NCBI GenBank assembly: GCA_021654395.1
Contig: AP024486.1
Location: 1-32,000, forward strand
Direction of reading: 5' to 3'
Length of the DNA stretch: 32,000 bases
Source: Candidatus Saccharimonadota bacterium
Lineage (GTDB): Archaea > Micrarchaeota > Micrarchaeia > Micrarchaeales > Micrarchaeaceae
The position numbers were made by a program, and so were the translations under genes. Positions within the stretch are counted from its first letter, which is position 1. Each line of letters starts with the position of its first letter. Of the stretch, positions 6,291 to 30,587 are shown in pieces. The notes under the pieces are model-generated. The model was not told the origin of the DNA and searched no databases. It saw nothing but the letters and a program-made list of their open reading frames with translations.

Positions 6291-6330
6291 ATTATTTAGT
6301 ATTTAAAAAAATAAGATAAGTAAATAAAGC

Positions 6331-6338
6331 TTTAAATA
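6331..6338 (+). promoter_or_regulatory. TATA-like box TTTAAATA preceded by purine-rich AAAGC (BRE-like), 27 nt upstream of the lig ATG
   Basis: Position relative to the ATG at 6358. This spacing is typical for archaeal leaderless transcripts. Confidence 0.35.
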
Positions 6339-6357
6339 TAATATTTAAACGATATCT

Positions 6358-8151
6358 ATGCTATTTGATGAGTTGGCAGATTATTATTCAAAGCTAGAAG
6401 AGATATCATCAAGAATAGCGATGGTTGATATACTGGCAGATATGCTATCTAAGCTGAATGAAGATGAGATAGATAAAGCAATTTACATAACTCAAGGTGT
6501 CCTATTACCTCCATATCAAGGAATAGAGATAGGTATAGCAGATAAGATGGCAGAAGATTCTATATCACTAGCGACTGGCTATAAAAGAGAGGATATTGAG
6601 AAGCTATATAAGCAATTAGGAGATCTAGGAAGTGTAGTAGAGCATATACTTAATGAAAGAAATACAGCGAAGATAGATGAAAGAAAGCTGAGCATACTAG
6701 ATGTTTATAATACTGTTTATGATATAGCAAAGAGGGCTGGAGAAGGTAGTAAAGCTCAAAAGACAAAGCTTTTAGCAGGCTTAATAACAAATCTCAGCCC
6801 GAAAGGAGCAAAGTATGCAGTAAGATATGTATTAGGGCAGTTAAGGTTAGGAGTGGGAGATGCGACTGTTATAGAGGCCTTATCTCTCATATCTACTAAA
6901 ACAAGAGGTAATAAGGATATAATAGAGAATGCATATAATCTATGTAGCGATCTGGGTTATATAGGTAAGCTGATTAAGCAAGGAGGTATAGATGCAATTA
7001 AGGATTTTAAGATCAGCTTATTTAGACCTATAAGACCAGCGTTAGCTGAGAGATTACCAACAGCGCAGGAGATACTACAAAGAATGAATGGCAGATGTGC
7101 AGTAGAGTATAAGTATGATGGCTTTAGATGCCAGATTCATAAGAAAGGCAATGAAGTAATGATATTCTCAAGAAGATTAGAGAATACAACAGCTATGCTA
7201 CCAGATATCGTAAATGCAGTAAAGAAAGAGATAAAGGCAGATGAGATAATATTTGAAGGAGAGGCGATAGGATATGATCAAGATACAGGAGAGTTCTTCC
7301 CATTTCAGGAGACTATACAGAGAAAGAGAAAGCACGATGTAGAAGAGAAGGCAGAGTCTATACCTCTTAAGCTTTTTGCATTTGATCTAATGTATCTCAA
7401 TGGAGAAAGCTATCTTAATAAGCCATATTCAGAAAGAAGAGCAAAGTTAGAAGAGTTAATAAAAGATAGTAAAGAATCTGTGATAAGACTAACACAAAGA
7501 ATAATAACAGATAATCCTGTTGAATTAGAGAACTACTTTGATAATGCAATAACAAATGGCTTAGAAGGCATAGTAGCAAAGGATCTTAATGCTCCTTATA
7601 TAGCTGGTGCAAGAAAGTTCTCATGGATAAAGCTAAAGAGAAGCTATAAGGGAGAGCTCTCAGACACACTAGATCTAGTTATTGTTGGATATGATGTAGG
7701 AACGGGTAAGAGAGCAGAGATAGGATTTGGAGCAGTACTGGCAGCGACATATAATAAAGAAAGAGATATCTTTGAAACAATATGTAAGATCGGATCTGGA
7801 TATACAGACAAAGAGAGAGAGATTATGAGAGATCTATTAAGAAAGATAGTTGTAGATCATAAGCCTGCTAGAGTAGACTCTATAATTAAGCCAGACTATT
7901 GGGTTGAGCCGAGATATGTTATAACAGTAAAGGCAGATGAGATTACAAGATCTCCAACCCATACATGCGGCAGAACAACGCTACCAGATGGAACAACTGT
8001 CGGCTATGCTTTAAGATTTCCAAGGCTTGTATCACAGAATGATGATCCTATAAGAGAGGATAAAGCACCAGAGGATGCGACAACGACGCAAGAGGTAATA
8101 GAGATGTATAACATGCAAAGAAAGAGCTCTGTAGGGGAAGATGAAAGCTGA
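6358..8151 (+). CDS. lig: ATP-dependent DNA ligase
   Basis: The 597-aa product carries adenylation motif I, AVEYKYDGFRCQIH (KxDG). It also has motifs EGEAI, LFAFDLMYLNGE, GLEGIVAK and WIKLK, and an OB-fold tail. Length and architecture match archaeal Lig. Confidence 0.93.
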   Translation: MLFDELADYYSKLEEISSRIAMVDILADMLSKLNEDEIDKAIYITQGVLLPPYQGIEIGIADKMAEDSISLATGYKREDIEKLYKQLGDLGSVVEHILNERNTAKIDERKLSILDVYNTVYDIAKRAGEGSKAQKTKLLAGLITNLSPKGAKYAVRYVLGQLRLGVGDATVIEALSLISTKTRGNKDIIENAYNLCSDLGYIGKLIKQGGIDAIKDFKISLFRPIRPALAERLPTAQEILQRMNGRCAVEYKYDGFRCQIHKKGNEVMIFSRRLENTTAMLPDIVNAVKKEIKADEIIFEGEAIGYDQDTGEFFPFQETIQRKRKHDVEEKAESIPLKLFAFDLMYLNGESYLNKPYSERRAKLEELIKDSKESVIRLTQRIITDNPVELENYFDNAITNGLEGIVAKDLNAPYIAGARKFSWIKLKRSYKGELSDTLDLVIVGYDVGTGKRAEIGFGAVLAATYNKERDIFETICKIGSGYTDKEREIMRDLLRKIVVDHKPARVDSIIKPDYWVEPRYVITVKADEITRSPTHTCGRTTLPDGTTVGYALRFPRLVSQNDDPIREDKAPEDATTTQEVIEMYNMQRKSSVGEDES

Positions 8152-11489: not shown

Positions 11490-14201
11490 ATGAACAGCTT
11501 CTCAAGATACATAGATGAGATCTCTATAGACAATAATAGCTATAAGGTTATATCATTAAAGGAGCTTTCTAAAGAGTATCCTTTAATAGATCAGATGCCA
11601 CTCTCTTTAAGAATAATCTTAGAGTCTCTTGTAAGAAACTTCGATGGTAATGCGATAGATGATTATTCTATAAAGAATCTATTAAGCTGGAGGAGTAAAG
11701 AGGAGTTCGAGATACCATTAAGGATAAATAGAGTTCTTATGCAAGATTTTACAGGAGTTCCTGCCTTAGTAGATCTCGCTTTAATAAGGGATTATGTATC
11801 TAGACAAGGCTTAGATCCAAAGATAGTAAATCCATCTATTCCTGTAGATCTTGTAATAGATCACTCTGTAGATGTATACTACTATAAGGAAGATAATGCA
11901 TTAGAGATGAACCATAAGATTGAGATAGAGATGAATAAAGACAGATATAAGTTCCTTAAATGGGCAGGCTCTGCATTTAGTAATATAAGGATCTTTCCTC
12001 CTTCTGCTGGTATATGCCATCAGATAAATCTTGAGCTTCTATCACAAGTAGTTTACATTGATAAAAGGAGCGATGCCAACTATCTTGCTCCGGAGATTAT
12101 AGTAGGAACAGACTCTCATACAACTATGGTAAATGCATTGGGAATAATAGGCTTTGGAGTTGGTGGAATAGAGGCAGAAGCAGCATTGCTTAATGAGCCT
12201 GTTTATATAAATAAGCCCAGATTTATAGGAGTAAACTTAAGAGGCAGATTAAATGAAGGGGTTACTGCAACAGATTTCGCATTAACATTGACAAGAGTCT
12301 TAAGAGATTTTAATGTTGTCAACTGCTTTGTAGAGTTCTTTGGAGAAGGCCTAAGATCGCTAAGCTTAGCAAGTAGAGCCACTCTATCAAATATGTGCCC
12401 AGAGTATGGTGCAACTATCGCTCTATTTCCTGTAGATCAGATAACATTAGATTACTTATATCTGACTGGAAGAGATAAGGAGATTATAGATAGAGTAAGA
12501 GAGTATATGAGATATCAAGGGCTATTTAATCCAGATCTGAGTAAGGCATTATATGATGCTGTAATAGATTTTGATCTCTCTACTATAGAGCCAAGCATCT
12601 CTGGACCTTCTCTGCCAAAGCAGCAGATTCCCTTGAGCAGATCAAAGGACTCTTTCTTAGCATATATAAAACAAAGCTATAATCAAAATATAGAGCAGAA
12701 AGACGAGAGCAGATGGAATAATGAATCAGTAAAGGCAGACGCAAATAAGATCTATAATATAAAGGATATTCATGTAGATGGTAAGGAGAGCTTTGAGGTA
12801 AAGGATGGTGATATTGCTATAGCCGCTATAACAAGCTGTACAAACACAAGCAATACAGAGCTTATGATAGCAGCAGGCATACTTGCTAAGAAAGCTATTG
12901 AGAAAGGTCTTAAGGTTAAGAATGTATTTACTAAGACTAGCTTCGCACCAGGATCAAGAGTTGTTTACAGATATCTAAACGACTCTGGCTTATATAAGTT
13001 TCTTAAAGAGCTAGGATTCAACTTAGTAGCTTATGGCTGTACAACATGTATAGGCAATAGCGGCCCGCTATACGACTCATTAAGTAGTTACGTTAAGAAA
13101 GAGAATCTTAAGCTTGTAGCAGTTCTATCTGGAAACAGAAACTATGAGAGTAGAATTAACAATGATGTTGCTGCAAACTATCTGATGTCTCCACCTTTAG
13201 TTATAGCATATGCTATTGCAGGTAGTATACTGAAGGATCTAAGCAGAGAGCCTCTAGGATATGATAAGGAAGGTAATCCAGTATACTTGAAGGATATCTG
13301 GCCAACTAAGGAGGAGATAGATTCAATAGTCAACAAGTATGTAAGTAGAGATCTATATGTTGATACATATAGATCAATACTAGATCTAAATGAAGATTGG
13401 CACAGCTTAAGCTCTGAGTCATCTCTGTTATATAAGTTTGATGAGAGTAATACATATATAAGCGAACCACCTTTCTTAGATATAGATAACAGCATGCCTC
13501 TTAAGAGCCTTTATACATTGGCGGTATTTGGAGATTCTATATCTACAGACCATATCTCTCCAGCTGGAGAGATAGATCCAGAGTCTCCAGCAGGAAAGTA
13601 TCTTATGAGTTTAGGCGTTGAGAAAGATAAGCTAAATACATATGGATCTAGAAGAGGAAATCATAATGTAATGGTAAGAGGAACATTTGCAAATAAGAAG
13701 CTTAGGAATCTTCTAATTGATAAGCAGGGCGGATATACTATCCTATTCCCAGATAATAAGCTTATGTCTATATATGATGCTGCTATGGAGTATAAGATAA
13801 GAGGCCACGGACTAGTTGTATTTGCAGGATCAGAGTACGGCTCTGGCAGCTCTAGAGATTGGGCGGCAAAGGGGCCTGCATTATTAGGAGTTAGAGCCGT
13901 TGTTGCAAAGAGCTTTGAAAGAATACATAGAAGTAATCTTGTAGAGATGGGGGTAATGCCTCTTAGATTTACTAATGGATATGACTACAACAAGCTTGAG
14001 CTTGATCCATCATATCCGTTAGATATAGAGCTTCCAGATGGCATATCAATAAATGGAAGGGCTTTACTATCATATACAGATAAGCATGGCAATAATAGAA
14101 AGATAGAGCTTATAATAGAGCTAAGAAATAAGGTTGAGGTAGATTATTATAAAGCTGGAGGTATAATGAGATATGTATATAATAAGATAATAAGCAAGTG
14201 A
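11490..14201 (+). CDS. acnA: Aconitate hydratase (AcnA/IRP type)
   Basis: The 903-aa product shows conserved blocks LPLSLRIILESLVRN, MQDFTGVPALVDLA, DLVIDHSV, GICHQINLE, VGTDSHTTM, ITSCTNTSN, GCTTCIGNSG, SGNRNYESR and GSSRDWAAKG. Confidence 0.95.
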   Translation: MNSFSRYIDEISIDNNSYKVISLKELSKEYPLIDQMPLSLRIILESLVRNFDGNAIDDYSIKNLLSWRSKEEFEIPLRINRVLMQDFTGVPALVDLALIRDYVSRQGLDPKIVNPSIPVDLVIDHSVDVYYYKEDNALEMNHKIEIEMNKDRYKFLKWAGSAFSNIRIFPPSAGICHQINLELLSQVVYIDKRSDANYLAPEIIVGTDSHTTMVNALGIIGFGVGGIEAEAALLNEPVYINKPRFIGVNLRGRLNEGVTATDFALTLTRVLRDFNVVNCFVEFFGEGLRSLSLASRATLSNMCPEYGATIALFPVDQITLDYLYLTGRDKEIIDRVREYMRYQGLFNPDLSKALYDAVIDFDLSTIEPSISGPSLPKQQIPLSRSKDSFLAYIKQSYNQNIEQKDESRWNNESVKADANKIYNIKDIHVDGKESFEVKDGDIAIAAITSCTNTSNTELMIAAGILAKKAIEKGLKVKNVFTKTSFAPGSRVVYRYLNDSGLYKFLKELGFNLVAYGCTTCIGNSGPLYDSLSSYVKKENLKLVAVLSGNRNYESRINNDVAANYLMSPPLVIAYAIAGSILKDLSREPLGYDKEGNPVYLKDIWPTKEEIDSIVNKYVSRDLYVDTYRSILDLNEDWHSLSSESSLLYKFDESNTYISEPPFLDIDNSMPLKSLYTLAVFGDSISTDHISPAGEIDPESPAGKYLMSLGVEKDKLNTYGSRRGNHNVMVRGTFANKKLRNLLIDKQGGYTILFPDNKLMSIYDAAMEYKIRGHGLVVFAGSEYGSGSSRDWAAKGPALLGVRAVVAKSFERIHRSNLVEMGVMPLRFTNGYDYNKLELDPSYPLDIELPDGISINGRALLSYTDKHGNNRKIELIIELRNKVEVDYYKAGGIMRYVYNKIISK

Positions 14202-15612: not shown

Positions 15613-16359
15613 ATGTTTAAGCCCTTAAGATATACTATAAGCTATTATATAAGTAATATAAAGATTGTAACGTTACTGTCTCTCCCGATACTTATAGCTG
15701 TTATACTATCCTTACTGCTATATAGATACGCTTTACCACAGTCATACGCATTATTTATAAGCATAGATCTAATAGAGAGCAAAAGTATTGCAAATATAAT
15801 AGTTGCTGTTCTAGATCTAATAATACCCAATATCTTTATTAGCTTTAGTATAGCTATGCTTAATCTTCTACTAAAGAGTAGAAGAACGTTTACAAAGATA
15901 ACAAATGACATTATACTATCTATAGAGAGATATACCTCTAGAATCTTTGTAATAGTTATTGCTTATATGATCTTATCGTCATTTATATTCTATCTGGCTT
16001 CTATATCTTCTATTCACATATTCATATTAACTGCTGCACTAATATCTTTTATTATATATGCTCTTATATTCTATGCGCCTAACGCGATAGTGCTAGATGA
16101 TCTATCTATAATAAACTCTATAAAGAAGAGCATCTATTTACAGAGGAAGAGACCTGCCTACTTTATATGCTGGATAGTGCTTTCAGCTATAGTAGTTCTT
16201 CTATTGATACTTATATCATTATATCTTAACCATCTTAATCCATCTTATACAACTTTATATAATTACTTAATATTTACAATATACGGACTATTCTTCTTGC
16301 CATTTATAATACTTCTTCAAGCAAATATGTATCTTGATAGATATAAGCTATTAAAATGA
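15613..16359 (+). CDS. Hypothetical polytopic membrane protein (about 6 TM)
   Basis: Hydrophobic helices run throughout and no motif was recognised. Its stop overlaps the start of the next gene (ATGA). Confidence 0.55.
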   Translation: MFKPLRYTISYYISNIKIVTLLSLPILIAVILSLLLYRYALPQSYALFISIDLIESKSIANIIVAVLDLIIPNIFISFSIAMLNLLLKSRRTFTKITNDIILSIERYTSRIFVIVIAYMILSSFIFYLASISSIHIFILTAALISFIIYALIFYAPNAIVLDDLSIINSIKKSIYLQRKRPAYFICWIVLSAIVVLLLILISLYLNHLNPSYTTLYNYLIFTIYGLFFLPFIILLQANMYLDRYKLLK

Positions 16360-16673
16360 TAAGCATGGATGATTTCCTATACTGCAGCTACATAAATAAG
16401 AGGTATAAACCAATTATAAGAAAGGCGATAATAGAGTATCTTATTAAGAAGGGGTTCTCTCAAGTCTATATATCTAAGCTACTTAACATATCACAACCTG
16501 CTATAAACAAGTATCTAAATAGAGCTATAGATGACAGTTCTATATATAAACAGATTATTAGATACCTTAATAGCGAAGACATTAAAGAGGATGATCTAAG
16601 ATCTTTAGAGGATAAGCTTCTTGCTATGCTTATCTCAGATAGAAAGCTTAGTCATTCTAGAAAGATGGTATAG
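16356..16673 (+). CDS. Small HTH DNA-binding protein, putative regulator
   Basis: GFSQVYISKLLNISQPAINKYLNRA is a classic helix-turn-helix. The gene is translationally coupled to the upstream membrane protein. Its 3' end overlaps convergent ogg by 39 nt. Confidence 0.5.
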   Translation: MISMDDFLYCSYINKRYKPIIRKAIIEYLIKKGFSQVYISKLLNISQPAINKYLNRAIDDSSIYKQIIRYLNSEDIKEDDLRSLEDKLLAMLISDRKLSHSRKMV

Positions 16674-17483
16674 ATACTGCTGAGCATAACCAGCATATCT
16701 CCCCCATCTAGAATATGCAAACTCCTTTATCTTTGAGATCTTTAACCTCTCATTATTAAAGTAAAGCCGCTCTATTGCTCTCTTGATCCATGTATCTATA
16801 GGAAATGCTTCTGTCTTTCCATAACCGAATAATGCTATGCAATCAGAGACCTTATCTCCTATGCCGTAAATATCCATTAATGCATCTTTTATATATTCAT
16901 AGCTCTTATGCTCTAGAGAGTACATATCTAGATTATAAAGCATATATCTAACTGCATTATATAGATATGGTGCTCTGTAGCCCAAGCCAATCTCTCTTAA
17001 TCTCTCAATACTTATCTTCTCAAGTGTGTATAGATCAGGAAATAGCCTATAACTCTTGCTATTAAGCTTTACAACCTTTCCATAGCTATATAGCTTATCT
17101 ATTATACCTCTGATTCTATTTATATTGTTAAACTGTGATATAATGAATACTATAGTTGTTATTACAGGATCTGACTTTGTAAGTCTTAAGCCTTTATATG
17201 ACATTATGGCTTTATGCATTATACTATCTGTATCTATACTTTCATATATCTTATTTAGATTATCTTTGCTTCTTAGTAGCTGCTTCACATAGCTAGCGTC
17301 ATGCTTTGGATATGCTTTTACATATATGCTGTGTACTGGATTATCTATACTCTCAGCATTTATATATAGCAATAGCTTATCCTCAGAGTAAACCAGATTA
17401 TTATTAATAATCTTTGATATGAAGCTTAATGTCTGGCCACTTTCATAAGTTTCCTTTATAGCTATATCTATATCTAATCTCAT
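16635..17483 (-). CDS. ogg: 8-oxoguanine DNA glycosylase / AP lyase (HhH-GPD superfamily, Ogg type)
   Basis: HhH-GPD motif IYGIGDKVSDCIALFGYGKTEAFPIDTWIKR, with the catalytic Lys in GDKVSDC and the Asp in PIDTW. The ATG overlaps the stop of the upstream giant gene (AGATGAGA). Confidence 0.8.
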   Translation of the reverse strand: MRLDIDIAIKETYESGQTLSFISKIINNNLVYSEDKLLLYINAESIDNPVHSIYVKAYPKHDASYVKQLLRSKDNLNKIYESIDTDSIMHKAIMSYKGLRLTKSDPVITTIVFIISQFNNINRIRGIIDKLYSYGKVVKLNSKSYRLFPDLYTLEKISIERLREIGLGYRAPYLYNAVRYMLYNLDMYSLEHKSYEYIKDALMDIYGIGDKVSDCIALFGYGKTEAFPIDTWIKRAIERLYFNNERLKISKIKEFAYSRWGRYAGYAQQYLYHLSRMTKLSI

Positions 17484-20400
17484 CTACTCTTATTTAGATA
17501 GTAATTTAATATTAATGCTACTGCTAGTAAAACTAATAAGATAATAACAGATACTTGACTATAGCTTATTGATAATCCACCATAGTAGGCCTCTATGGAT
17601 GTCTCAGATGGCTGTAGAGTATAGTTATACTCTAAAACTACTAGAAGATTACCCGATGTAACTATGTTGATATGCTGATTACTAGATGTAGGGAATGTTA
17701 TTATAGAAGGTGAGTAGCTGCCTCCACCATTGCTTACTATCTGATTTATTGTCTGATTTGCATATGGATTAGCTGCTATAACAATAGGCATCGGCTCTGG
17801 CGGATTATTACCATAGTACTTTACAATAACAGAAGTTTCACCATTTCCGCATATAGTTATTGGACCTGCTGAAAAGTTACCTAATGTATTTGAGCTACTG
17901 CTCGTTGTAACTATATCTGCTAGGCCTAGCTGTGGCGTTAAGATACCAGTTCCATTCTGGAACTGTGGATCACAGTAAAGCATCTCTCCATTCTGTGCCT
18001 CTGCTATTGGTAAGTTGTAATATCCAAATACGTTACAGTTATAAACCTTCTTCTGTAATAGATAGCCAGCTGGCTTAGAGCATTCATTAGATATACTGTT
18101 AAATGCTGGCTGATATGTAATGTATTTTGCCTCTTCAATTCCGGTCTGATTATAAGATACGCTAGCAGATTTAAGATCCCCGCTATATGTTATTGTCTCT
18201 AAGGGATTTGCAACAGGACATCTTCCAGCGAGGCTGCCAAATGCACATTCTGTAACATATTGAGCATAATCTTGTGGATCAGAGTAAGGTGTTACTATGC
18301 TATTATAATAGTTTATATCTTGTCCTATATATACATATACTGGAGCATTACCTACGCCGCTGCACTGCGTTAATCCACTACCGAAGCATTGATATAGCTG
18401 ACCACTAACATATAAGTCTGTTTGATTCGTATTTGCTGAATCTATTATAGAATTTACTGAGACTGCAAGATAGGTATAGTTTGCGAAGTCAACTGACATT
18501 GGAGCATATAACGTATTATTAAAGTAGTCAAAGAAGTTATAATCTAACCTATTAAATCCATATAGCGGCTTTAAGGTGTAAGCTCCTCCAGGATTATTAA
18601 ACTGCTCTGTCTGCTGATACAGATAAGTTACAATCTTATAGACTGTTGGAAGTGCAAAGGATGCAATTCCTGGAGAGTGTATAGCATTTACTGTAAGAGT
18701 TACTAGACTTGGATTACTATATATATCTGCAGGAGGTATGCTATAGTATCCAGCATCAGTCTGCAATGTAGTTATCGGAGGATGTTGATTAACAACCTCA
18801 TGTGCGTACTGGGGAATCTCAGTAGAGCCAACTTGCTGTGCGTAAGTAACTTGAGTGTATGTTGCATTACTATATGCAAATAATGGGAATGGTATGATTA
18901 GCTTTGTATAAGGATTCTCATAAGATGAGTTCTCAGTAAGATTTACGAAATACTCTCCCAGTATTCTTCCAGTATATATGTTAAATATCATAGCTGGTGG
19001 CATTATTGTCTGATTATCGTAAAGACTTGCATTATAGAACAGGTTAGTAAGATCGTTCTTGATATATACTGTATCTGCTTGTACCTGATCTACAACCTTA
19101 TTAGATAAGAATGGGAATGCAGCATATGAAACCACATTTTCATATGATGAACCTTGTGGATTTAGAGTTGGTTTACATTGACCTGATTCTAGCTCACCAA
19201 CGCTGCATGTAGGCTTTGATGGCTTACAGCATTTAGCGTTACTTTCAGAAGTAGAGTCAGGCACTATTGAACTCTGTACTACAGTTATTCTATACTTTGT
19301 GTTATAGCTATAGTTATAAAATACATATATCTGGCCATCTATCTGTGAACTTAGATTCTCATAAGAGTTTAGAGAAGATACTGTAGATACCTGCTGCGAG
19401 GATGATGTATAGCATGTTGGTGTTAGCCCGCTACTTCCACTGCTAGATGTACTGCTGCATTCTACTGCAGCTGTAGAGCCAGATGATGATGGGCATATAA
19501 TGTTCGCTGATCCGCTACTTGATATTTGACATAATGGAACTGCACATGTCGGTATATAGTTACCAGGTGTTGGATTACTTGGATTCTCTATACAAGAAGG
19601 CACAGGTATAACAGTTCCGGAGCTAGATGAATAAGTAGCACTACATGTAGGAGCAGAAATTTGGCCTTGGCTATTTACGCATTCTATCTGACCATAAGGG
19701 GTACATTCTAGCTGATCTCCTGATGGGCATTGAGGTAATAATTGTTTATAATTGCTGCAGTATGCAAATGCACTTGAGACTACCTGACCATTCGATTCAC
19801 ATACTACCTCTGCACTACCAGACTGTGAACCGCTACTTCCTCCTGCTGGTGCACACGAAGAGCTACCAGCTGGGCATATGCTAGCTAAACCTGCACCTAG
19901 TGAAAGATATCTTAATGGAGTACTTTGTGATAGTGCATACGATGATGCGGAAGTTTCAACTGTTATAGGACCGTATAGCTGAGAAAGGATATAGTATGGG
20001 GCTTTTGTGTTTGTATCTGTCTCTCCTTCTCCAGAGCTACAGCTTTGTTCATCTACGGATGTATTTAAGTAACATATATAATTGCTATTTACTGGTTTAC
20101 TGTATTGGACTATTGTATAGTTATAGGGCAATGGATCAAACTGCACTAACTCAGTATATGGCGTCTTTGCTACATCAACATGAGCAAGTAGCAAAGCGCT
20201 TCCATTTGACTCTACAGCAAAGCCATAGGGCAGACCAGTTATCACTTGTGCTACTGTATGAAGAGACTTTGGTAGAGTTCCGAATATATTTATATTTACA
20301 CCTGTAATCTGTAATCCAGCAGAATTTGGTACAGCAGTCTGCGGGAATGGATTAGCAGATATTGCTGGACCAATTGGTAAGAATCCATTGGTATTTGTAT

Positions 20401-23374
20401 TTGCTGGTGTGTATTCACACTGCGATATACAGAAAGTATAGTACTTTGTATTACCATTACTTAGAGTTACTGATATATTTGCACTTAACGGCCATCCGTA
20501 TGGAGGATAACCTAATGAGAAGTTGACTCCAGACCCTATAAAGGCATTTCCAGGTACTATATCATCTACGCCAAATCCGTTTATTGGCAGCTCTGCAGAT
20601 CCATTTGAAGTTAGCTCTCTTAACATTAGTATTGACCCTTGTACTCCGCATCCACTAAAGTTCCATAGATCTAATACATATAGTATGCCTTCATAAGAGC
20701 CATATCCTAAAACATGATGGTATCCGCTATTATCTGGTAGATAGCAGTCGCTCTGAACTGGTATCTTAACGCCGTATAGGCCACCATTTGCCAAGTATGC
20801 ACTTATATTTAGATCATATATTGTCTCTTTAGTTGAACCACTTAATGTCGATACTGTGGTGGATTGAGAATAGTTTAGATTAAATATTCCTGAGACTGTC
20901 TGCAGCTCGTTGTTTATTATTGTTATATTGCTATTAAAGTAGTTAGATGCATATGAATATGTGCCATCAGGGCTTAATGATAGAAGTGTAACTGGGCATT
21001 CATTACCTTCTAAGCTTAGACCTATTGTATTTGCAACTCCTTGATATACGCTATTGCAGCTCTGCTGAAATGTTATATCTGCTGCACTTGTATGACTATT
21101 TATTCCACCCTTTATAAATACAACAGCTGCGCTACCTCCATTCGGGCCATTCTGGTATCCACCTAACGCTATATCTCCTGCGTAATCTGAAGTCATTACT
21201 AGTGGTTTAAAGTTCTTTATATTACCAATTGAATCTATAATCCAGTTAGATAATCCAAACCATGATGAATGTGTAGAACCCACTAAAGCAGTAGAGAGTA
21301 TATAATAGCCAGAAAGCTGATCTATGAATGAATCGTTTATGTACTGTGCGAAGTTCTGTCTAAACTGCTGTAACAGAGTATTTGCACTCGTCTCTCCAGA
21401 AAGTGGAGGTACTGCTACTTCAAATGGGTTATTAGAATTGTTGAACATACCGCTCTGTACTTGCTTTATGTAATAAAGATAGTAATTAGTGCTACCAAAT
21501 CCAAATAGTCCAGACGATGTTGTATTTAATGCAAGTATATATCCTGCCGGAGATGCATATGCAGATATAGGGTTATGGATTATTAATGAATACAACTCTA
21601 TGTTATTACTTTTATATACTTCCGGTTGAATTGTAGGTGGACCTCTGATATTATCGCTAGAGCTGCCCCCAAATGGTGGTGGTGGAGATCCAGGGCCTAT
21701 TGGATCTAAGAATGCCATACTAGTAAAGTTGAAACCAGAGACATTTCCAGATAGTATGCTTATTGGTATAGTCGTTAGATTGTTATTTAGATTTCCTATT
21801 ACAGCTCCAACTCCTGAGCTGAGATTTATAGGATCTATTGGTAGCTTACCTGCGGGATTTTGACCAAATAGATCCGCTGCTCCGTATATAGAATAGCTTT
21901 CATTTAGATTAACCTTAGAATTACTAAGATATGTTTGTATTATTGGAGCACCATAGTTATAAGTTATATTTGGATAATATGTTGCGTTTGTCTCATTCTG
22001 TATAGTAGTGGCTTGCATAGCTACATAGTTACATCCTTTAGTGTAGAAGTTAGCGCTAGTTGAACAGAATATGAAGAGTATATTTCCTGGTGCACTACCC
22101 TCCTCAACTGCTCCAGGAGTACTTCCTTTATCTTGTGAAGTACCTTGTAGATGCGTAAATACCTTTGCTATATGATATCCAGAAGTTATTCCAGTACTTG
22201 GATTTGGATTTAATATATAAACTGCTGCATAACCTGGCAGTAATGAGTATTGGCCTACGCACTTACCAGCTCCAAATAGATTTTCCAACTGTGTTAAGAA
22301 TCCGCCACCTTCGCCTGCAAGCTGATCTGCACATTGTCCTATAGTTACATGCCTCAATGGACCAAATATAATACCCTGGTAGTAAGAGTAGTTGTAGCTA
22401 TTTATATTACTCTCAAAGCTGCTATTTACTATAGGTACAGTTCCGTTAACGTTATGTAATCCACCTATCCCTACTGTTGATTGATAATTATATATAACTC
22501 CACAAGACCAGCTCTCAGTATTAGAACATGGATCTACACAGATGCCGTTAACGTAAGCTAAGCATCCAGGACATGTAGTGCTGCATTCAACAGTAATAGA
22601 TATGTCATTAAATGTACTTGTTGTAGTTTGCAGCGTATTAGATACTGCACCAAAGTTCGCATAGGCAGCATACCATTCCCATATGCCGTACTGCGGTACT
22701 GTAGGTATCGGCTGATATACAAGGCTTCTCGTACTATAACCGTTAGATATATTGAAGTTTGTACCTATCTGAGCTTCTTCAGCATACCCTAGATTTATTA
22801 CACCTGCATACTGTGGAGACGGGCCTACTTGAATTACTGCTGGATTTCCATTACCATAATCATAAACCAGATCTCCTCCGGCAAGTAGGTTGTATATTGC
22901 TAATCTATTAAATTCAGTGTAAGCATAAGTAGACGAAGACCAGTATGTATTGAAAGTTGCATTCCACCATGTAGTAAACTTAAGGTTACTAGGCAACAGA
23001 CACAAGTTACCTATTGCGAACTCATTTCCTGGCAAGTAGTAATAAAGCGTTTGTATAGTAGAGGGCTCAAATGGGCATGTAATAAGGTAGTTATTATTAT
23101 TTAGATTATACTTTATAGTATTACTTACTACTGGAAAATTAGATTGTTGCTGTACTATCTCATTAGATGATCCAGTATCTGTAATCTCTGTCTGAACTGA
23201 GCAGTTTACATACTGCGTGCCTTGAGCGCCACTTAGAGGAGTAGCAGATACTCCACCAAAGCACTTATAAGAGCTAGATATAGATTTCGAGCTACTTATA
23301 TTTGTTACATATATTAGAGTTAGCAGTAAAGTAATAGACAGTAATGTAAACTTAATACAGTATTTACAAGCCAT
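17480..23374 (-). CDS. Giant secreted, C-terminally membrane-anchored surface (glyco)protein, S-layer/adhesin-like (1964 aa from the corrected start)
   Basis: Signal-peptide-like N-terminus MACKYCIKFTLLSITLLLTLIYVTNISSS, from the ATG at 23372-23374. C-terminal TM plus a basic tail (VSVIILLVLLAVALILNYYLNKSR). Dozens of N-x-S/T sequons, many Cys, very few K/R/D/E. The first 27 codons of the track ORF overlap tRNA-Lys and were trimmed. Confidence 0.8.
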   Translation of the reverse strand: MACKYCIKFTLLSITLLLTLIYVTNISSSKSISSSYKCFGGVSATPLSGAQGTQYVNCSVQTEITDTGSSNEIVQQQSNFPVVSNTIKYNLNNNNYLITCPFEPSTIQTLYYYLPGNEFAIGNLCLLPSNLKFTTWWNATFNTYWSSSTYAYTEFNRLAIYNLLAGGDLVYDYGNGNPAVIQVGPSPQYAGVINLGYAEEAQIGTNFNISNGYSTRSLVYQPIPTVPQYGIWEWYAAYANFGAVSNTLQTTTSTFNDISITVECSTTCPGCLAYVNGICVDPCSNTESWSCGVIYNYQSTVGIGGLHNVNGTVPIVNSSFESNINSYNYSYYQGIIFGPLRHVTIGQCADQLAGEGGGFLTQLENLFGAGKCVGQYSLLPGYAAVYILNPNPSTGITSGYHIAKVFTHLQGTSQDKGSTPGAVEEGSAPGNILFIFCSTSANFYTKGCNYVAMQATTIQNETNATYYPNITYNYGAPIIQTYLSNSKVNLNESYSIYGAADLFGQNPAGKLPIDPINLSSGVGAVIGNLNNNLTTIPISILSGNVSGFNFTSMAFLDPIGPGSPPPPFGGSSSDNIRGPPTIQPEVYKSNNIELYSLIIHNPISAYASPAGYILALNTTSSGLFGFGSTNYYLYYIKQVQSGMFNNSNNPFEVAVPPLSGETSANTLLQQFRQNFAQYINDSFIDQLSGYYILSTALVGSTHSSWFGLSNWIIDSIGNIKNFKPLVMTSDYAGDIALGGYQNGPNGGSAAVVFIKGGINSHTSAADITFQQSCNSVYQGVANTIGLSLEGNECPVTLLSLSPDGTYSYASNYFNSNITIINNELQTVSGIFNLNYSQSTTVSTLSGSTKETIYDLNISAYLANGGLYGVKIPVQSDCYLPDNSGYHHVLGYGSYEGILYVLDLWNFSGCGVQGSILMLRELTSNGSAELPINGFGVDDIVPGNAFIGSGVNFSLGYPPYGWPLSANISVTLSNGNTKYYTFCISQCEYTPANTNTNGFLPIGPAISANPFPQTAVPNSAGLQITGVNINIFGTLPKSLHTVAQVITGLPYGFAVESNGSALLLAHVDVAKTPYTELVQFDPLPYNYTIVQYSKPVNSNYICYLNTSVDEQSCSSGEGETDTNTKAPYYILSQLYGPITVETSASSYALSQSTPLRYLSLGAGLASICPAGSSSCAPAGGSSGSQSGSAEVVCESNGQVVSSAFAYCSNYKQLLPQCPSGDQLECTPYGQIECVNSQGQISAPTCSATYSSSSGTVIPVPSCIENPSNPTPGNYIPTCAVPLCQISSSGSANIICPSSSGSTAAVECSSTSSSGSSGLTPTCYTSSSQQVSTVSSLNSYENLSSQIDGQIYVFYNYSYNTKYRITVVQSSIVPDSTSESNAKCCKPSKPTCSVGELESGQCKPTLNPQGSSYENVVSYAAFPFLSNKVVDQVQADTVYIKNDLTNLFYNASLYDNQTIMPPAMIFNIYTGRILGEYFVNLTENSSYENPYTKLIIPFPLFAYSNATYTQVTYAQQVGSTEIPQYAHEVVNQHPPITTLQTDAGYYSIPPADIYSNPSLVTLTVNAIHSPGIASFALPTVYKIVTYLYQQTEQFNNPGGAYTLKPLYGFNRLDYNFFDYFNNTLYAPMSVDFANYTYLAVSVNSIIDSANTNQTDLYVSGQLYQCFGSGLTQCSGVGNAPVYVYIGQDINYYNSIVTPYSDPQDYAQYVTECAFGSLAGRCPVANPLETITYSGDLKSASVSYNQTGIEEAKYITYQPAFNSISNECSKPAGYLLQKKVYNCNVFGYYNLPIAEAQNGEMLYCDPQFQNGTGILTPQLGLADIVTTSSSSNTLGNFSAGPITICGNGETSVIVKYYGNNPPEPMPIVIAANPYANQTINQIVSNGGGSYSPSIITFPTSSNQHINIVTSGNLLVVLEYNYTLQPSETSIEAYYGGLSISYSQVSVIILLVLLAVALILNYYLNKSR

Positions 23375-23430
23375 TATATATCTAGTTATCTTAAGAAGTT
23401 CAAATATATATAATTTACGTATAGATACAG

Positions 23431-23504
23431 CGGATCCGGTGGGATTTGAACCCACGACCTACGGGTTAAAAGCCCGCCGCTCTGCCAAACTGAGCTACGG
23501 ATCC
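23431..23504 (-). tRNA. tRNA-Lys (anticodon UUU)
   Basis: Hand fold: GGAUCCG-UA-GCUC-AGUUUGGCA-GAGC-G-GCGGG-CUUUUAA-CCCGU-AGGUC-GUGGG-UUCAAAU-CCCAC-CGGAUCC-G. All stems pair, with one G:U at 27:43. Confidence 0.93.
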
Positions 23505-26285: not shown

Positions 26286-26343
26286 ATTCTAAGTCCTACT
26301 TAAGAAAATAATAATTATCTCTTTGCATATTAATTATCTTGTA

Positions 26344-28431
26344 ATGATCGAATCTAGCTCAATAGATATATTAAATAGCTTAAAGAGCTTCTTACAGCAG
26401 TACTGCTCTCAAGAGATAGATGAGATAAGATTAGAGTTCCCTAATAGAAGAAGCTTAGATGTAGATATAGCCTTACTTGCATCATATAACAGAGAGCTTG
26501 CTAGTATGCTTATTGATAACCCTGATTCTATAATAAGAGAGGCAGATAACGCGCTTGCTTCTATCTTGAATCTTGATAAGAGCTATAGATTTCATGTCAG
26601 ATTCTATAATCAGAATATATATAGACCATTGGTTCAGGATGTTGGAACAGAGTATCTAGAGAAGCTTATAACGCTCGATGCGCTAGTTGTAAAGAGATCA
26701 GAGGTACTATCTAAGGTAAGAATCGCTAATGTAAGATGCACAAAGGCAGGATGCAGCTATAGGGCAGAGATAGATCTAGATTATGATGAGCTTCCAGAGA
26801 AATGCCCATTATGCAATAGCAGGATAGCTATTCAAGAGGATCATTCTAGCAAGATAGATATGCAGAGGATAGCTATTCAAGATCCATTAGAGGTACTAAA
26901 AGGAAATGTTCCAAACTGGCAGCTTACTGTTGTACTAGAGGATGATCTAGTTAACTCTGTCCTACCAGGAGATAGAATTGAGGTAACTGGAGTTCTAAAA
27001 GCTGCGATGATAGATAAGAGAAGGAATAGATCAATCAGAAGCAAGGATATAGTATACGCAATGTATCTTAAGGCAGTCTCTTTAATACATAAGCAGAAAG
27101 ACTTTGCATCATTACAGATAACTAAGAGCGATGAGGAGAAGATTAAGGATCTTGCAAAGGATCCAAATATAATAGACAAGATAGTCAACTCGATTGCTGC
27201 ATCTGTATATGGATACAGAGAGATAAAGACTGCTGTAGCATTACAGCTCTTCGGAGGTAACTCTAATAAATCTCTTATAGATAATAGCCCTGTAAGAAGC
27301 GATATACATATACTGCTTATAGGAGATCCTGGAAGTGCTAAAACAAGAATACTTCAATCTGTTGCAGCCCTAGTGCCTAAGGGCATATACGTCTCTGGCA
27401 AGTCTGTAACTGCTGGAGGTCTAACAGCAGTAGCTGAGAAGGATGAGTTCTCAGAGGGAGGTTGGACTCTTAAGGCAGGAGCATTAGTTCTAGGTAATGG
27501 AGGTCTTGTCTGCATAGACGAATTTGATAAGATCTCTGATGAGGATAGATCTGCACTGCATGAAGCTATGGAGTCTCAAACTATATCTGTTGCTAAGGCA
27601 GGAATAGTTGCTAACTTCTCAGCAAAGACATCTATACTGGCTGCAGCTAATCCTAAGTATGGAAGATTTGATCCTAATAAGTATCCTGCAGATCAGTATG
27701 ATATACCACCAACGCTACTATCAAGATTTGATCTTATATTCCCGATAAGAGATCTGATGGATGAGCAGCTAGATAGAAATATAGCAGAGCATATAACTCT
27801 ACAGCACAAGATCTCTGCAGAGAATAACGGCTTAATAACTGATCAGCTTTATAATGAGCAGAACAAGGTATCAAAGCCAGAGATAGATAGAGAGCTGCTT
27901 AGAAAGTATATTGCATATGCCAGAAGAAATATCTTCCCTGCATTAACAGAGGAGGCAAGAGGAAGGATAGTAAGCTACTATACAACATTAAGAAAGCTTG
28001 GTAAGAATATGAATACAACTCCAATAACTCCTAGACAGCTCGAAGGATTGATAAGACTCTCTGAGGCAAGTGCAAAGGCTAGACTGTCAAATAAGGTTGA
28101 GATAAGTGATGTCGAGAGAGCAATATCATTGCTAGATTATGTACTCAGACAAGTTGCTATAGACAAAGAGGGCAGAATAGATATAGATATAATATCCACT
28201 AATATGCCTAAGGAGAGAGTTAGCAAGATAAATATTATTAAGAGCATAATATCTAGTATGGAGAAGAAAGAGGGTGGAGCTGCTAAGATAGATGATGTGA
28301 TAAAGGCTGCAGGTGAGCAAGGAATAAGTACAGATGAAGTGAATAGGCTGCTACTTGAGCTAGAGAAAGGTGGAGAGATATACAAGCCAAGAGTCGGTTA
28401 TATAAAGCTAGTTGAGTATAGAGATGAGTAA
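26344..28431 (+). CDS. mcm: MCM replicative helicase
   Basis: Zn-finger CTKAGC...CPLCNS, Walker A GDPGSAKT, Walker B CIDEFDK, Arg-finger SRFDLIF and a C-terminal wHTH. The ATG at 26344 is preferred over the track's TTG at 26323; both are in frame. Confidence 0.93.
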   Translation: MIESSSIDILNSLKSFLQQYCSQEIDEIRLEFPNRRSLDVDIALLASYNRELASMLIDNPDSIIREADNALASILNLDKSYRFHVRFYNQNIYRPLVQDVGTEYLEKLITLDALVVKRSEVLSKVRIANVRCTKAGCSYRAEIDLDYDELPEKCPLCNSRIAIQEDHSSKIDMQRIAIQDPLEVLKGNVPNWQLTVVLEDDLVNSVLPGDRIEVTGVLKAAMIDKRRNRSIRSKDIVYAMYLKAVSLIHKQKDFASLQITKSDEEKIKDLAKDPNIIDKIVNSIAASVYGYREIKTAVALQLFGGNSNKSLIDNSPVRSDIHILLIGDPGSAKTRILQSVAALVPKGIYVSGKSVTAGGLTAVAEKDEFSEGGWTLKAGALVLGNGGLVCIDEFDKISDEDRSALHEAMESQTISVAKAGIVANFSAKTSILAAANPKYGRFDPNKYPADQYDIPPTLLSRFDLIFPIRDLMDEQLDRNIAEHITLQHKISAENNGLITDQLYNEQNKVSKPEIDRELLRKYIAYARRNIFPALTEEARGRIVSYYTTLRKLGKNMNTTPITPRQLEGLIRLSEASAKARLSNKVEISDVERAISLLDYVLRQVAIDKEGRIDIDIISTNMPKERVSKINIIKSIISSMEKKEGGAAKIDDVIKAAGEQGISTDEVNRLLLELEKGGEIYKPRVGYIKLVEYRDE

Positions 28432-29442
28432 ATGCCCGTAAGAGATATAGATCTAAGAGAGCTTCTCAAGGTATTTACTGCTTTCTTAATAGTCCAGTTC
28501 TTAGGCTTTCTTATGATGCTCCTTGTTTATAATAATGCTTCTTACTCAGTATTAAGCAGCGTATCTTATGGACAGAGCAATATACTCTACTCCATATCAA
28601 TATTTGTATCAGAGCTAATTATAGCCGTTATAATACTTCTCTTGCTTATTAGATTCTTACATGGCGCTTGGTTATACTACTTCATGGAAGGAGCGATACT
28701 ACTCCTTACTCTTACTGTATTCTTTGGTGTTATTATATCTAGCTTTTTAGGAGAGGCTTATCTATTCGCAGCAGGCTATCTTCTACCTTATGTATATATT
28801 ATAGCATTAGCTATAAGTATAGGATTTATAATAGCAAAGCATAAGATAAACTCTATCATACTTAGAAACTTCATAGTTATAATGACAAGCGTTGGACTAG
28901 GCTTACTCATAGGTATATACTTTGGCTTTTTCTTCTCTCTGATATTCTTAGTTATAATGGCTGTTTATGATTATGTCTCAGTATTTATAACTAAGCATAT
29001 GGTTGCATTAGCAGAGGGCTCATTTAGATATAACCTTGCTATGATGCTGTACTTTAGTGAGACTAAAGCACTAGATAAGAGCAGTGTAGATAAGAGAACT
29101 CTAAATGAGATAGATAAGGATCTAAAGAAGAATAAGGAGTTTTATAAGTCATTCAAAAGCATATCTAACAAGTTAAATCTGAGTAGTAGCTATGTGCCTC
29201 TAGTATCTGCAGTTGGCTTAGGCAACGGTGATCTTGCATTACCTTTATCAGTAGTTGTTGCTTCAGTAAAGTATAGCAATAACTTTATACTGCCGTTGAC
29301 TCTAATAGCTGGAGGTGCATTAGGGCTAGCTTTGACATTCTATCTTCTATATAGATATAGAAGACCTCTGCCGGCTATACCGCCTTTAAGCATAGGAATA
29401 CTATTTGCATTCTCATTATATATACTATTGAATATTAAATAA
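28432..29442 (+). CDS. Presenilin / signal-peptide-peptidase-like intramembrane aspartyl protease (A22 family, PSH-like)
   Basis: A polytopic membrane protein with AVYDYVSVFITKHM (YD motif), GLGNGDLALP (GxGD motif) and PLPAIPPLS (PAL-like motif). A hydrophilic loop lies between the two catalytic helices. It starts at the nucleotide after the mcm stop. Confidence 0.7.
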   Translation: MPVRDIDLRELLKVFTAFLIVQFLGFLMMLLVYNNASYSVLSSVSYGQSNILYSISIFVSELIIAVIILLLLIRFLHGAWLYYFMEGAILLLTLTVFFGVIISSFLGEAYLFAAGYLLPYVYIIALAISIGFIIAKHKINSIILRNFIVIMTSVGLGLLIGIYFGFFFSLIFLVIMAVYDYVSVFITKHMVALAEGSFRYNLAMMLYFSETKALDKSSVDKRTLNEIDKDLKKNKEFYKSFKSISNKLNLSSSYVPLVSAVGLGNGDLALPLSVVVASVKYSNNFILPLTLIAGGALGLALTFYLLYRYRRPLPAIPPLSIGILFAFSLYILLNIK

Positions 29443-30587
29443 TGATCTATATGCTATTTATAAAGCTGCCAAAGAGCAGATGCGAGATATTAAGAAAGAG
29501 GCTTAGCAAGATGGACCTTCTTATTAGTAATGTAAAGCCATTGCGATATGATGATTATATAGCATTTCCTGTTAAAGAGTCCATAAAGGATGTAGAAGAT
29601 CCTGAGATAAAGAGCTTAGAGCTTCTAGATATAGATAGTTATGAAGCTATGGATCTTACAAAAGGATCTTTTAAGGATTATCTAAAGAGATATCTAAATG
29701 AGGAGGAGCTTAAGCATATATCTAACGGTTATGATATATATGGAAGCATAGCTGTTATAGACATAGATAACTCATTAAAAGATAAGGCAAAGCTTATAGC
29801 TAAGGCGCTAATGGATTTTGACAAGAGGATAAAGACAGTGCTTGCGAAGAAGAGCGCCGTATCAGGAGCTTATAGAACAAGAGAGTTTAGCTATATATAT
29901 GGTAGAAGAAGCTATATAGCAGAGCATAAAGAGAATGGATGTATCTTTAGATATGATATAAGAAAGGTATTCTTCTCTAATAGACTAGCATTCGAAAGAA
30001 AGAGAGTATACAGCCTAGTTAAGGATCATGAAAGAGTATATGTAATGTTCTCTGGCGTTGCTCCTTTCTCTATAGAGATAGCAAAGCATACTAATGCAGA
30101 TAAGATACTCTCTGCTGAGCTTAATCCTTACGGCCACAGATACGCTATTATAAACTGTAGACTTAACAATATAAGCTATATAGATCTCGACTCTAAGATA
30201 GATAATAGATCTTTAGAGGCAGCTTTAAGCTCTAAGGAGAGAATGATACTTATAAATGCTAATGTATCAGATCTTAGCAATCTAGAAGCTATAGATAGCT
30301 ACTTTGATAGAATAGTTATGCCATTACCAAGATCTACTCTACTATTCCTTAATGAGGCATATAAGGCAGCCAGAGATAATGCAACTGTGCATCTATATGC
30401 ATTCTCAGATATAAACAATCCATTTGAGAGCATAAAGAGGAGGATATTAGAGCATGCGGAGGCAAATGGCTATAAGATTGAGTTCTTATTTGAAAGGGTT
30501 GTAAGAAACTACTCTCCACAAGAGTTAGAGGTTGTTATAGACTATAGAATAATAAAGAATAAAAAGCTTTTACAAGATGTTAAGTAG
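29442..30587 (+). CDS. trm5: tRNA (guanine37-N1)-methyltransferase, Trm5/Taw22 family (Met-10+ like)
   Basis: Motifs YDIYGSIAVIDI, FRYDIRKVFFSNRLAFERKR, VYVMFSGVAPFSIEIAK, ELNP and RIVMPLP. The start overlaps the upstream stop by 1 nt (TAATG). Confidence 0.8.
   Translation: MIYMLFIKLPKSRCEILRKRLSKMDLLISNVKPLRYDDYIAFPVKESIKDVEDPEIKSLELLDIDSYEAMDLTKGSFKDYLKRYLNEEELKHISNGYDIYGSIAVIDIDNSLKDKAKLIAKALMDFDKRIKTVLAKKSAVSGAYRTREFSYIYGRRSYIAEHKENGCIFRYDIRKVFFSNRLAFERKRVYSLVKDHERVYVMFSGVAPFSIEIAKHTNADKILSAELNPYGHRYAIINCRLNNISYIDLDSKIDNRSLEAALSSKERMILINANVSDLSNLEAIDSYFDRIVMPLPRSTLLFLNEAYKAARDNATVHLYAFSDINNPFESIKRRILEHAEANGYKIEFLFERVVRNYSPQELEVVIDYRIIKNKKLLQDVK

Follow-up and report, generated by a model that had tools for sequence, protein, structure and literature searches.

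Giant surface proteins are already known as a kind from symbionts among the DPANN archaea. The SPEARE proteins of Nanohaloarchaeota, for instance, combine protease, adhesion and nuclease domains. PMC10266531 also deals with surface proteins of giant size in nanohaloarchaea. Within the Micrarchaeota, 'Ca. Mancarchaeum acidiphilum' Mia14 encodes large secreted proteins with YVTN/Kelch and PKD elements (MIA14_0152, _0331, _0793 and _0946), for which a role in cell–cell interaction was proposed and whose four genes occupy about 2.5% of the Mia14 genome (Golyshina et al. 2017, PMC5498576). The subject of the present work is a gene for a protein of 1964 amino acids (aa), located on the minus strand at positions 17480..23374 of a 32,000-nt stretch of DNA (contig AP024486.1, positions 1 to 32,000, hereafter the window). 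The source organism is Microcaldus variisymbioticus ARM-1, a cultivated thermoacidophilic DPANN ectosymbiont (Micrarchaeota/Microcaldota), in whose genome the gene is annotated as a hypothetical protein and has been left undiscussed. What is new is that the product belongs to a large Micrarchaeota-specific family which is dark to the domain databases, with fixed insertion sites and a conserved partner, and that the ARM-1 member is expressed at a sub-lattice level. With moderate confidence, we consider it an anchored, glycosylated and disulfide-rich surface scaffold for contact with the host or with other cells, and not a component of the surface-layer (S-layer) lattice.

The SPEARE proteins resemble the ARM-1 family in concept, as giant modular surface proteins of DPANN ectosymbionts with adhesion-type and lytic modules and a proposed role at the host interface. 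However, no homology was detected between them, the phylum and the domain repertoire differ, and the ARM-1 copy carries no enzymatic module. The Mia14 proteins are alike in phylum, acidophilic ectosymbiotic lifestyle, size class and the presence of a YVTN-type propeller element; they are known by domain annotation and were called strain-specific, whereas the ARM-1 family has a conserved, unannotated core and is found phylum-wide (a comparison made by description only). In the archaeal surface protein 1L0Q of Methanosarcina mazei, which has a tandem YVTN propeller and PKD domains (Jing et al. 2002), the YVTN blades match the family profile, but the ARM-1 protein matches by one blade of ~40 residues, has no PKD domain and is unrelated in the rest of its 1964 residues.

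Among the S-layer proteins, SLP_Mh (Micr_00292) of 'Ca. Micrarchaeum harzensis' A_DKE belongs to the same phylum and is a glycosylated, acidic and exported envelope protein (bioRxiv 10.1101/2021.04.28.441871). According to the same study, the micrarchaeal S-layer protein has a mass of 101 kDa and an S_layer_N domain, exceeds all other proteins of its cell in abundance and has homologues in every nearly complete Micrarchaeota genome examined there. The ARM-1 protein, on the contrary, has a mass of 211 kDa, no S_layer_N domain and a Cys content of 2.5%, and in abundance lies ~200-fold below the top ARM-1 protein. SlaA and SlaB of the Sulfolobales, the lineage of the ARM-1 hosts, are likewise sequon-rich and charge-poor glycoproteins of thermoacidophiles, and SlaB also has a C-terminal transmembrane (TM) anchor; the ARM-1 protein differs in having no sequence similarity to them, no predicted coiled-coil stalk and a sub-stoichiometric level.

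A Protein Family of the Micrarchaeota

The family was defined by an exhaustive profile search. Word-indexed searches gave only six relatives: a full-length query of 15 sequences was swamped by low-complexity candidates and returned three proteins, and a core-only alignment added three more. The exhaustive search retrieved 241 cluster representatives at E<=1e-3, 187 of them at E<=1e-30, and the giant protein itself was recovered by the family profile at 1445 bits. Members are mostly 1500–4000 aa long, and nearly all of the matches listed extend almost to the C-terminus, ending at most a few dozen residues short of it. BLASTP alignments to three relatives (P0002–P0004) span residues ~40–1170 and 1420–1964 of the giant protein, and the identity of the core is ~28–30% across the phylum. 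The ARM-1 sequence carries the family motifs LITCP, ISNGY, GIW.W, YLANGGP, LYVLD.W, YPPYGWP and NYTK, as well as LGYNR...D.FNNT, NGTG..TSQLGL and CG.G...YYG.

The relatives, 152 in number, have a median length of 1962 aa, median contents of 1.9% for Cys and 8.6% for charged residues, and a median sequon density of 1.6 per 100 aa; a hydrophobic C-terminal anchor is found in 139 of them. Giant size, richness in Cys, low charge and a C-terminal anchor are family-wide traits. The product names of the members are 'hypothetical protein', with the single exception of a 'C40 family peptidase'.

A genome scan gave 11 related loci, nearly all in metagenome-assembled genomes (MAGs) of Micrarchaeota. The organism names of the members are Micrarchaeota, Micrarchaeia and Micrarchaeaceae, with the exception of a few 'Marsarchaeota' and one 'Methanothrix' bin. 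The labels 'Candidatus Marsarchaeota' or 'Methanothrix sp.' apply to the loci L002, L004, L006 and L007 and to the protein P0150. Near-identical or syntenic pairs are formed by L004 with L003, L007 with L005 and L002 with L006. An extension of the family beyond the Micrarchaeota was rejected, since the oddly labelled loci are near-identical to, or syntenic with, loci labelled as Micrarchaeota; this suggests that the MAGs in question are mislabelled or contaminated bins.

Conserved Core and Insertion Sites

The conservation map was drawn from an alignment of 71 relatives, in the residue numbers of the ARM-1 protein, and invariant columns were read from alignments of 4, 15 and 16 sequences. In the N half, the conserved blocks are residues 81–120, 201–240, 301–320, 461–540, 601–620, 681–740, 801–820 and 881–1000, and in the C half 1061–1100, 1141–1160, 1341–1360, 1421–1480, 1601–1700, 1741–1870 and 1921–1960. 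Variable sites are located at 161–180, 241–300, 341–460, 561–600, 1021–1060, 1170–1340, 1361–1420 and 1881–1900.

The N-terminal conserved region (residues 81–330; 22385..23134, minus strand, as are all of the following segments) contains the motifs LITCP..P, ISNGY.T.S.IF and GIW.W, and is interrupted by a lineage-specific Cys-rich loop with six Cys (residues 261–295). A second conserved block (residues 461–560; 21695..21994) reads LPY..YN.S.P ... LN.SYD.YSPHNY ... LDP in the alignments. According to the invariant columns, the most conserved region is formed by residues 595–1010 (20345..21592), with the motifs SPNDY.YVLN, TSDYAGD.F, SPGGQY.Y..N, YLANGGP, HHP and LYVLD.W.F, and further ILMLRAF..NGTE.P, YPPYGWPLSAN, C..C and PIGP. 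It is followed by a block at residues 1055–1170 (19865..20212) with YTEL..F....NYTK, P..F.Y.E..GSP and the conserved Cys1101 and Cys1112.

The main variable insertion site of the family is occupied in ARM-1 by a lineage-specific insert rich in Cys, Ser and Gly (residues 1167–1340; 19355..19876), which has 14 Cys spaced 5–18 residues apart and low occupancy in the family. A similar Cys pattern is present at this site in the closest relative (P0076), and other relatives have Ig-like or other modules there. The C-terminal ectodomain block (residues 1341–1935; 17570..19354) includes the motifs GY.LVPYN.TY, NLSD...I.PP, TNR.FGE.Y.N, LGYNRL.Y...D.FNNT...P.D.D.AN.T, NGTG..TSQLGL and CG.G...I...YYG.P.P.P, together with the conserved Cys1710/1719/1765/1780/1801/1842. 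Eleven Cys are conserved family-wide, and about 24 of the 50 Cys of the ARM-1 protein lie within the lineage-specific inserts 261–295, 1167–1321 and 1382–1400.

A Probable Divergent Propeller

The giant protein has no match in Pfam even at E<=10 and none in NCBIfam at E<=0.1. The S-layer models S_layer_N (PF05123), TIGR01564 and TIGR01567 are absent from it at these same thresholds. In 15 and 16 relatives, Pfam matched accessory modules only, and the core remained unmatched, as it also did in NCBIfam. Searched as a single sequence against the PDB, the protein gave only a marginal propeller match. With a profile of 13 core sequences, the match was to the YVTN propeller of the M. mazei 'surface layer protein' 1L0Q (E = 6.5e-7), and with a deeper profile of 16 sequences (A8) to 1l0q_A at E = 4.7e-16, to the beta subunit of hydrazine synthase (5c2v_B) at 1.1e-10 and to a lactonase propeller at 4e-6. 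Paraoxonase propellers are also among the profile matches of residues 595–1010.

All of these matches pass through one motif of ~40 residues (~790–835), to which the blades of these propellers align one after another. This single recognizable YVTN-type blade (LLSLSPDGTYSYASNYFNSNITIINNELQTVSG, residues 790–835; 20870..21007) is accompanied by other blade-like motifs that are visible by eye only (SPNDY.YVLN, TSDYAGD.F and HHP....G.LYVLD.W); hhalign of the blade against the rest gave E = 0.14. Residues 595–1010 are probably a divergent propeller with long inserts. The preliminary description, which was made from the sequence alone, saw no recognizable domain or repeat. It stands as far as Pfam, NCBIfam and repeats are concerned, a self-BLAST having shown no internal repeats, but it has to be amended by one YVTN blade, which is detectable with the family profile only.

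The family profiles of the N-terminal region (residues 75–560) and of the C-terminal region (1335–1937) found no PDB match at E<=10, and the SlaA and SlaB chains in the PDB were matched neither by the giant sequence nor by the three family profiles. AlphaFold2 models of residues 30–1175 and 1176–1940, built on seven-sequence alignments, reached mean predicted local distance difference test (pLDDT) values of 32.9 and 32.7, and are unusable beyond hints of beta-structure. A Foldseek comparison of the low-confidence C-terminal model with the PDB gave no match at E<=0.001 and is uninformative.

Topology and Composition

The protein starts with a basic n-region (MACKYCIK), followed by a hydrophobic stretch of 15 residues (FTLLSITLLLTLIYV) and a polar c-region (TNIS, continuing as TNISSS), which together form a signal-peptide-like N-terminus (residues 1–27; 23294..23374, minus strand). 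Signal-like N-termini are also found in complete relatives (e.g., MKTLPLTVFLAAFVFVALLTAVHA in P0002). The hydropathy scan showed only two hydrophobic segments, that is, residues ~5–24 and 1932–1962. The latter contains the single C-terminal TM helix YSQVSVIILLVLLAVALILNY (residues 1938–1958; 17501..17563), with a Kyte–Doolittle maximum of 2.65. The protein ends with NYYLNKSR, of which YLNKSR (residues 1959–1964; 17480..17500 including the stop codon) is the short basic cytoplasmic tail. These signals are those of a type-I surface protein, for which export and cleavage are predicted. An anchor of the PGF-CTERM/archaeosortase type was considered and rejected, as there is no PGF motif in the last 60 residues; the sequence before the helix is EAYYGGLSISYSQ.

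The computed mass is 210.68 kDa, with an isoelectric point of 4.5 and a net charge of −58. Ser (12.0%), Asn (8.8%), Gly (8.6%), Thr (7.8%) and Tyr (7.7%) prevail, and the charged residues (K+R+D+E) amount to 8.5%, versus 24–40% in the soluble neighbors, with charge-free runs of up to 54 residues. The protein has 44 N-x-S/T sequons, whereas 5000 shuffles of its sequence gave 32.1 ± 4.9 (p = 0.013); sequons are thus truly, though only modestly, more frequent than the composition would predict. Their density is 2.2 per 100 aa, versus 0–1.3 in the soluble neighbors; 43 of them lie in the ectodomain and the 44th within the six-residue cytoplasmic tail. The 50 Cys make up 2.5% of the residues, versus 0–1% in the neighbors. 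The ectodomain holds an even number of them (48), from which up to 24 disulfides could be formed. On all these points, that is, the signal-like N-terminus, the single C-terminal helix with its basic tail, the dozens of sequons, the abundance of Cys and a charge-poor composition dominated by S, T, N, G and Y, the preliminary description was borne out.

Expression in Co-Culture

The complete genome of ARM-1 has 814,439 bp (PMC8784108). The organism is an ectosymbiont of Metallosphaera and other Sulfolobales, grows at pH 1.5–4.5 and 50–75 °C, has a mean cell diameter of 320 nm, and attaches to its hosts by fibers or by direct surface contact. The earlier supposition of an acidophilic archaeon with a small genome was thus correct.

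Proteomic data were taken from Supplementary Data 1 of PMC11329633, a study of ARM-1/AS-7 by cryo-electron tomography (cryo-ET) and proteomics. The masses of the open reading frames (ORFs) of the window match consecutive rows of this file in genome order: 73.79, 67.432, 14.179, 64.503, 8.347, 101.59, 52.567, 12.137, 33.147, 210.68, 53.193, 31.608, 14.05, 77.733, 44.087 and 11.412 kDa. This agreement proves independently that the window belongs to ARM-1. Three of them require an ATG located 3–7 codons downstream of the mechanically assigned start. These are MCM (26323–28431, plus strand; 77.733 kDa, fitting a start at Met8), a helix-turn-helix protein (16356–16673, plus strand; 12.137 kDa, ATG at codon 4) and Trm5 (29442–30587, plus strand; 44.087 kDa, ATG at codon 4).

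The row of 210.68 kDa is unique in the file. Its log2 label-free quantification values are 29.1–29.7 in all four co-cultures, versus 23–25, near background, in the host-only samples, and it is represented by nine peptides (8.8% coverage, score 323.31, intensity 1.63e10). Since it was detected in genome order with its neighbors, the gene is real and expressed. A lack of expression, which the preliminary description had named among the grounds for refutation, is therefore not the case. Its intensity-based absolute quantification (iBAQ) value of 6.1e8 is near those of UbiD (5.5e8), MCM (1.0e9) and LonB (1.1e9), that is, roughly at the level of housekeeping enzymes. The product of the next gene downstream, a DNA glycosylase, was also detected (33.147 kDa, iBAQ 2.0e8).

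In silico digestion with trypsin yields 48 peptides, of which 16 have a length of 7–30 aa, and low coverage is to be expected because such peptides are few. The 10 sequon-free ones among them cover 9.8% of the protein. The observed nine peptides and 8.8% fit occupied sequons without proving them, and may be taken as a hint of glycosylation.

Accessory Modules and the Partner Gene

On the same core, Pfam recognized InlB B-repeats, PKD, SprB and STI1-like repeats in the relatives. Ig-like modules and Gly-rich stretches occur in some of them, and a LamG-like DUF2341 in three members. Enzyme modules, that is, NlpC/P60, GH5 cellulase, GH39, GxGYxYP and the lysozyme-like SLT_3, are also present in some relatives. 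In P0088, such a module is placed within the core (residues 689–802), and other carriers are included in alignment A10. Most of the scanned members lack an enzyme module; it is commoner for them to have adhesion-type repeats or to be without any module.

In 10 of 12 related loci (L001–L009 and L012), the giant gene is immediately followed by a partner gene of the same orientation (e.g., L003, 13139–14509, and L007, 9145–10464, both on the plus strand). At the N-terminus of the partner, a protein of ~440–540 aa, there is a TM helix (..VPVIIILILIAAAAGLTRG.DIFALFG..), after which comes a tail of ~400 residues that is very rich in K and R; the partner has no match in Pfam or NCBIfam. Upstream of the giant gene, ksgA is found in six loci.

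Two further genes were observed near the related loci. In L001, from the Micrarchaeota MAG GCA_028866575, a cas1 gene (1959–3155, plus strand) precedes the giant gene by ~7 kb and is probably unrelated to it. In L007, a partial ORF of >797 aa (11586–13976, minus strand), which follows the giant gene at a distance of ~2.4 kb and overlaps small genes of the opposite strand, has an N-terminus like the type IV pilin-like (class III) signals of archaea (..QSAVEFISTYAFVFLAIAVAI..).

Gene Start and Neighboring Genes

The longest ORF of the window in the mechanical list is 17480–23455 on the minus strand, initiated by GTG and coding for 1991 aa; translation from the ATG at 23374 gives the product of 1964 aa. 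The extended form, with its 27 extra codons and the GTG at 23455, was rejected, as it overlaps a tRNA-Lys(UUU) on the same strand (23430..23504, ARAGORN). Since the upstream extension runs into this tRNA, which bounds the 5′ end of the gene, the start was placed at the ATG. Both the extent of the gene and its rank as the largest of the window, as first described, were confirmed by the ORF analysis and the tRNA-limited start. Between the tRNA and the ATG there is an A+T-rich spacer of 55 bp (23375..23429, minus strand) with the TATA-like runs AAATTATATATATTT. It is the sole room for a promoter of the gene's own, and may have this putative function.

At the 3′ end, the TGA stop codon shares an ATGA (17480–17483) with the start codon of the next gene, which codes for an HhH-GPD/OGG-like DNA glycosylase. 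This overlap suggests that two functionally unrelated genes are co-transcribed. The other neighbors in the window are archaeal housekeeping genes, that is, LonB, ATP-dependent DNA ligase, aconitase, Mqo, UbiD, UbiA, MCM, a presenilin-like peptidase and Trm5. Elsewhere in the window, two overlapping genes (2428–3906 and 3899–5737, both on the minus strand) code for multi-pass membrane proteins whose extracellular C-terminal parts have 23 and 19 sequons, respectively. Neither has a Pfam match, and neither is present between its neighbors in the published proteome. In the related locus L012, a homologue of the 2428–3906 product (5154–6668, minus strand) adjoins the giant gene.

A Proposed Surface Scaffold for Cell Contact

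The preliminary description left two options, that is, the envelope lattice or the attachment to other cells, and adhesion or host attachment appears to be the best reading. A contact scaffold is favored because of the topology, the acid-adapted chemistry, the even number of Cys in the ectodomain, the expression level, the restriction to one phylum and the modular adhesive and lytic inserts of the relatives. A Sec signal peptide would export ~1900 residues, which the C-terminal helix and the short basic tail would hold in the cytoplasmic membrane. The ectodomain, being acidic, charge-poor and rich in sequons and Cys, would have a chemistry suited to the acidity and heat in which ARM-1 grows. 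The core, composed of the N-terminal region, the propeller-like region, in which one blade is of the canonical YVTN type, and a presumably beta-rich C-terminal region next to the anchor, may stand on the membrane as a scaffold reaching to or through the S-layer. Its fixed insertion sites would mount lineage-specific modules (Ig/PKD-like, InlB-B, SprB, DUF2341 and the lytic NlpC/P60, GH5, GH39 and lysozyme-like ones), in place of which ARM-1 would mount its Cys-rich, Ser/Gly-rich inserts. The job of the protein would be contact with another cell surface, either for recognition of and attachment to the host or between ARM-1 cells. Such a role would agree with that proposed for the Mia14 proteins (PMC5498576) and with the attachment of ARM-1 by fibers or direct contact.

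That the giant protein is the S-layer lattice protein of ARM-1, or its main subunit, is highly improbable. The composition is like that of an S-layer glycoprotein (acidic, S/T/N-rich, with many sequons, a signal peptide and a C-terminal anchor), and the only relative in the PDB, 1l0q, was deposited as a 'surface layer protein', but the latter match is that of a single propeller blade. By far the most intense entry seen in the proteome is an ARM-1 protein of 106.34 kDa (intensity 3.1e12, iBAQ 1.42e11, 26.5% coverage), which exceeds the giant protein ~190-fold in intensity and ~230-fold in iBAQ and is probably the S-layer protein. It is encoded outside the window, ~16 detected proteins past the window's last gene. 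The giant protein has neither S_layer_N nor S_layer_C and no similarity to SlaA or SlaB, whereas the known micrarchaeal S-layer protein is a 101-kDa protein with S_layer_N, homologues of which were reported from every nearly complete Micrarchaeota genome examined. The ARM-1 S-layer is hexagonal with a spacing of 18.5 nm (PMC11329633); on a cell of 320 nm this gives several thousand lattice subunits, and a ~200-fold lower signal would correspond, as a rough estimate, to tens of copies of the giant protein per cell. Consequently, the suggestion of an envelope lattice was not sustained, and the tempting equation of the largest sequon-rich ORF with the S-layer protein is corrected.

The main rival to cell contact is a minor structural role in the envelope, which is possible but rather less probable. 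As a stalk or spacer with a membrane anchor, the protein would tether the S-layer to the membrane; it might also organize the pseudoperiplasm of 20–25 nm or, in a variant, take special places in the lattice, for instance at defects, division sites or pores. A C-terminal anchor with a large ectodomain is the topology of an S-layer anchor, Gfrerer et al. explicitly expected the micrarchaeal S-layer protein to have a second, TM-anchored partner (bioRxiv 10.1101/2021.04.28.441871), densities that extend between the outer layer and the membrane, as well as an imperfect lattice, are seen in ARM-1 by cryo-ET (PMC11329633), and a phylum-wide core in conserved synteny is what a housekeeping part of the envelope would have. 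At ~200-fold below the presumed lattice protein, however, it is too scarce to serve as the anchor of every unit cell, neither SlaB nor any coiled-coil stalk was found to be similar to it, and lytic and adhesion-type modules in the relatives are unexpected for a mere spacer. These same modules, as far as GH5 cellulase, GH39, GxGYxYP, SLT_3 and NlpC/P60 are inserted into the core, could also point to a generic scaffold displaying extracellular enzymes for nutrition or envelope remodelling that act on polymers rather than on partner cells, of which the ARM-1 copy would be an enzyme-less or cryptic-enzyme version. This is quite unlikely, as most of the scanned members lack an enzyme module, no catalytic domain is detectable in the ARM-1 copy with Pfam and NCBIfam, and in ectosymbionts lytic modules fit the breaching of the host envelope equally well.

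Several points weigh against the contact scaffold. The blade-to-blade comparison by hhalign gave no significant match in support of a complete propeller (E = 0.14), and the AlphaFold2 models are of low confidence (mean pLDDT ~33) with an uninformative Foldseek result. None of the accessory adhesion or enzyme modules of the relatives is found in the ARM-1 protein by Pfam and NCBIfam, and the partner is absent from the 32,000-nt window (tblastn with 10 partners, best E = 0.24). A phylum-wide core in the conserved order ksgA, giant gene and partner looks more like a housekeeping part of the envelope than like a fast-evolving, host-specific adhesin. With regard to the abundance, the 106.34-kDa protein was assigned to the S-layer by mass and rank only, and the level of a glycosylated, K/R-poor protein may be underestimated. 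Finally, the step from surface scaffold to host contact is inferential.

The contact scaffold can be extended, although this is a doubtful proposal, to a phylum-wide two-gene apparatus for docking to the host, formed in most Micrarchaeota by the giant protein and its basic-tailed partner. The conserved scaffold would pass through the S-layer of the symbiont and carry exchangeable tips, by which the host envelope would be recognized and breached locally. As tips, ARM-1 would have the Cys-knotted inserts and other lineages the lysozyme-like, C40, GH and Ig-like modules, and the K/R-rich domain of the partner, if cytoplasmic, might couple the contact site to the interior of the symbiont. If true, the contact between DPANN archaea and their hosts would have its first defined molecular machine, in a cultivated system that is tractable by cryo-ET.

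These results are relevant to how DPANN ectosymbionts recognize and hold their hosts. ARM-1 is among the few cultivated Micrarchaeota, and its genome, host range, cryo-ET and proteomics have been published, but attachment has so far been traced to none of its surface molecules, and averaging of its S-layer did not succeed. The giant protein is a well-defined candidate with which labelling, binding and blocking can be attempted, and its family is a marker for comparing the host-interaction repertoires of the Micrarchaeota.

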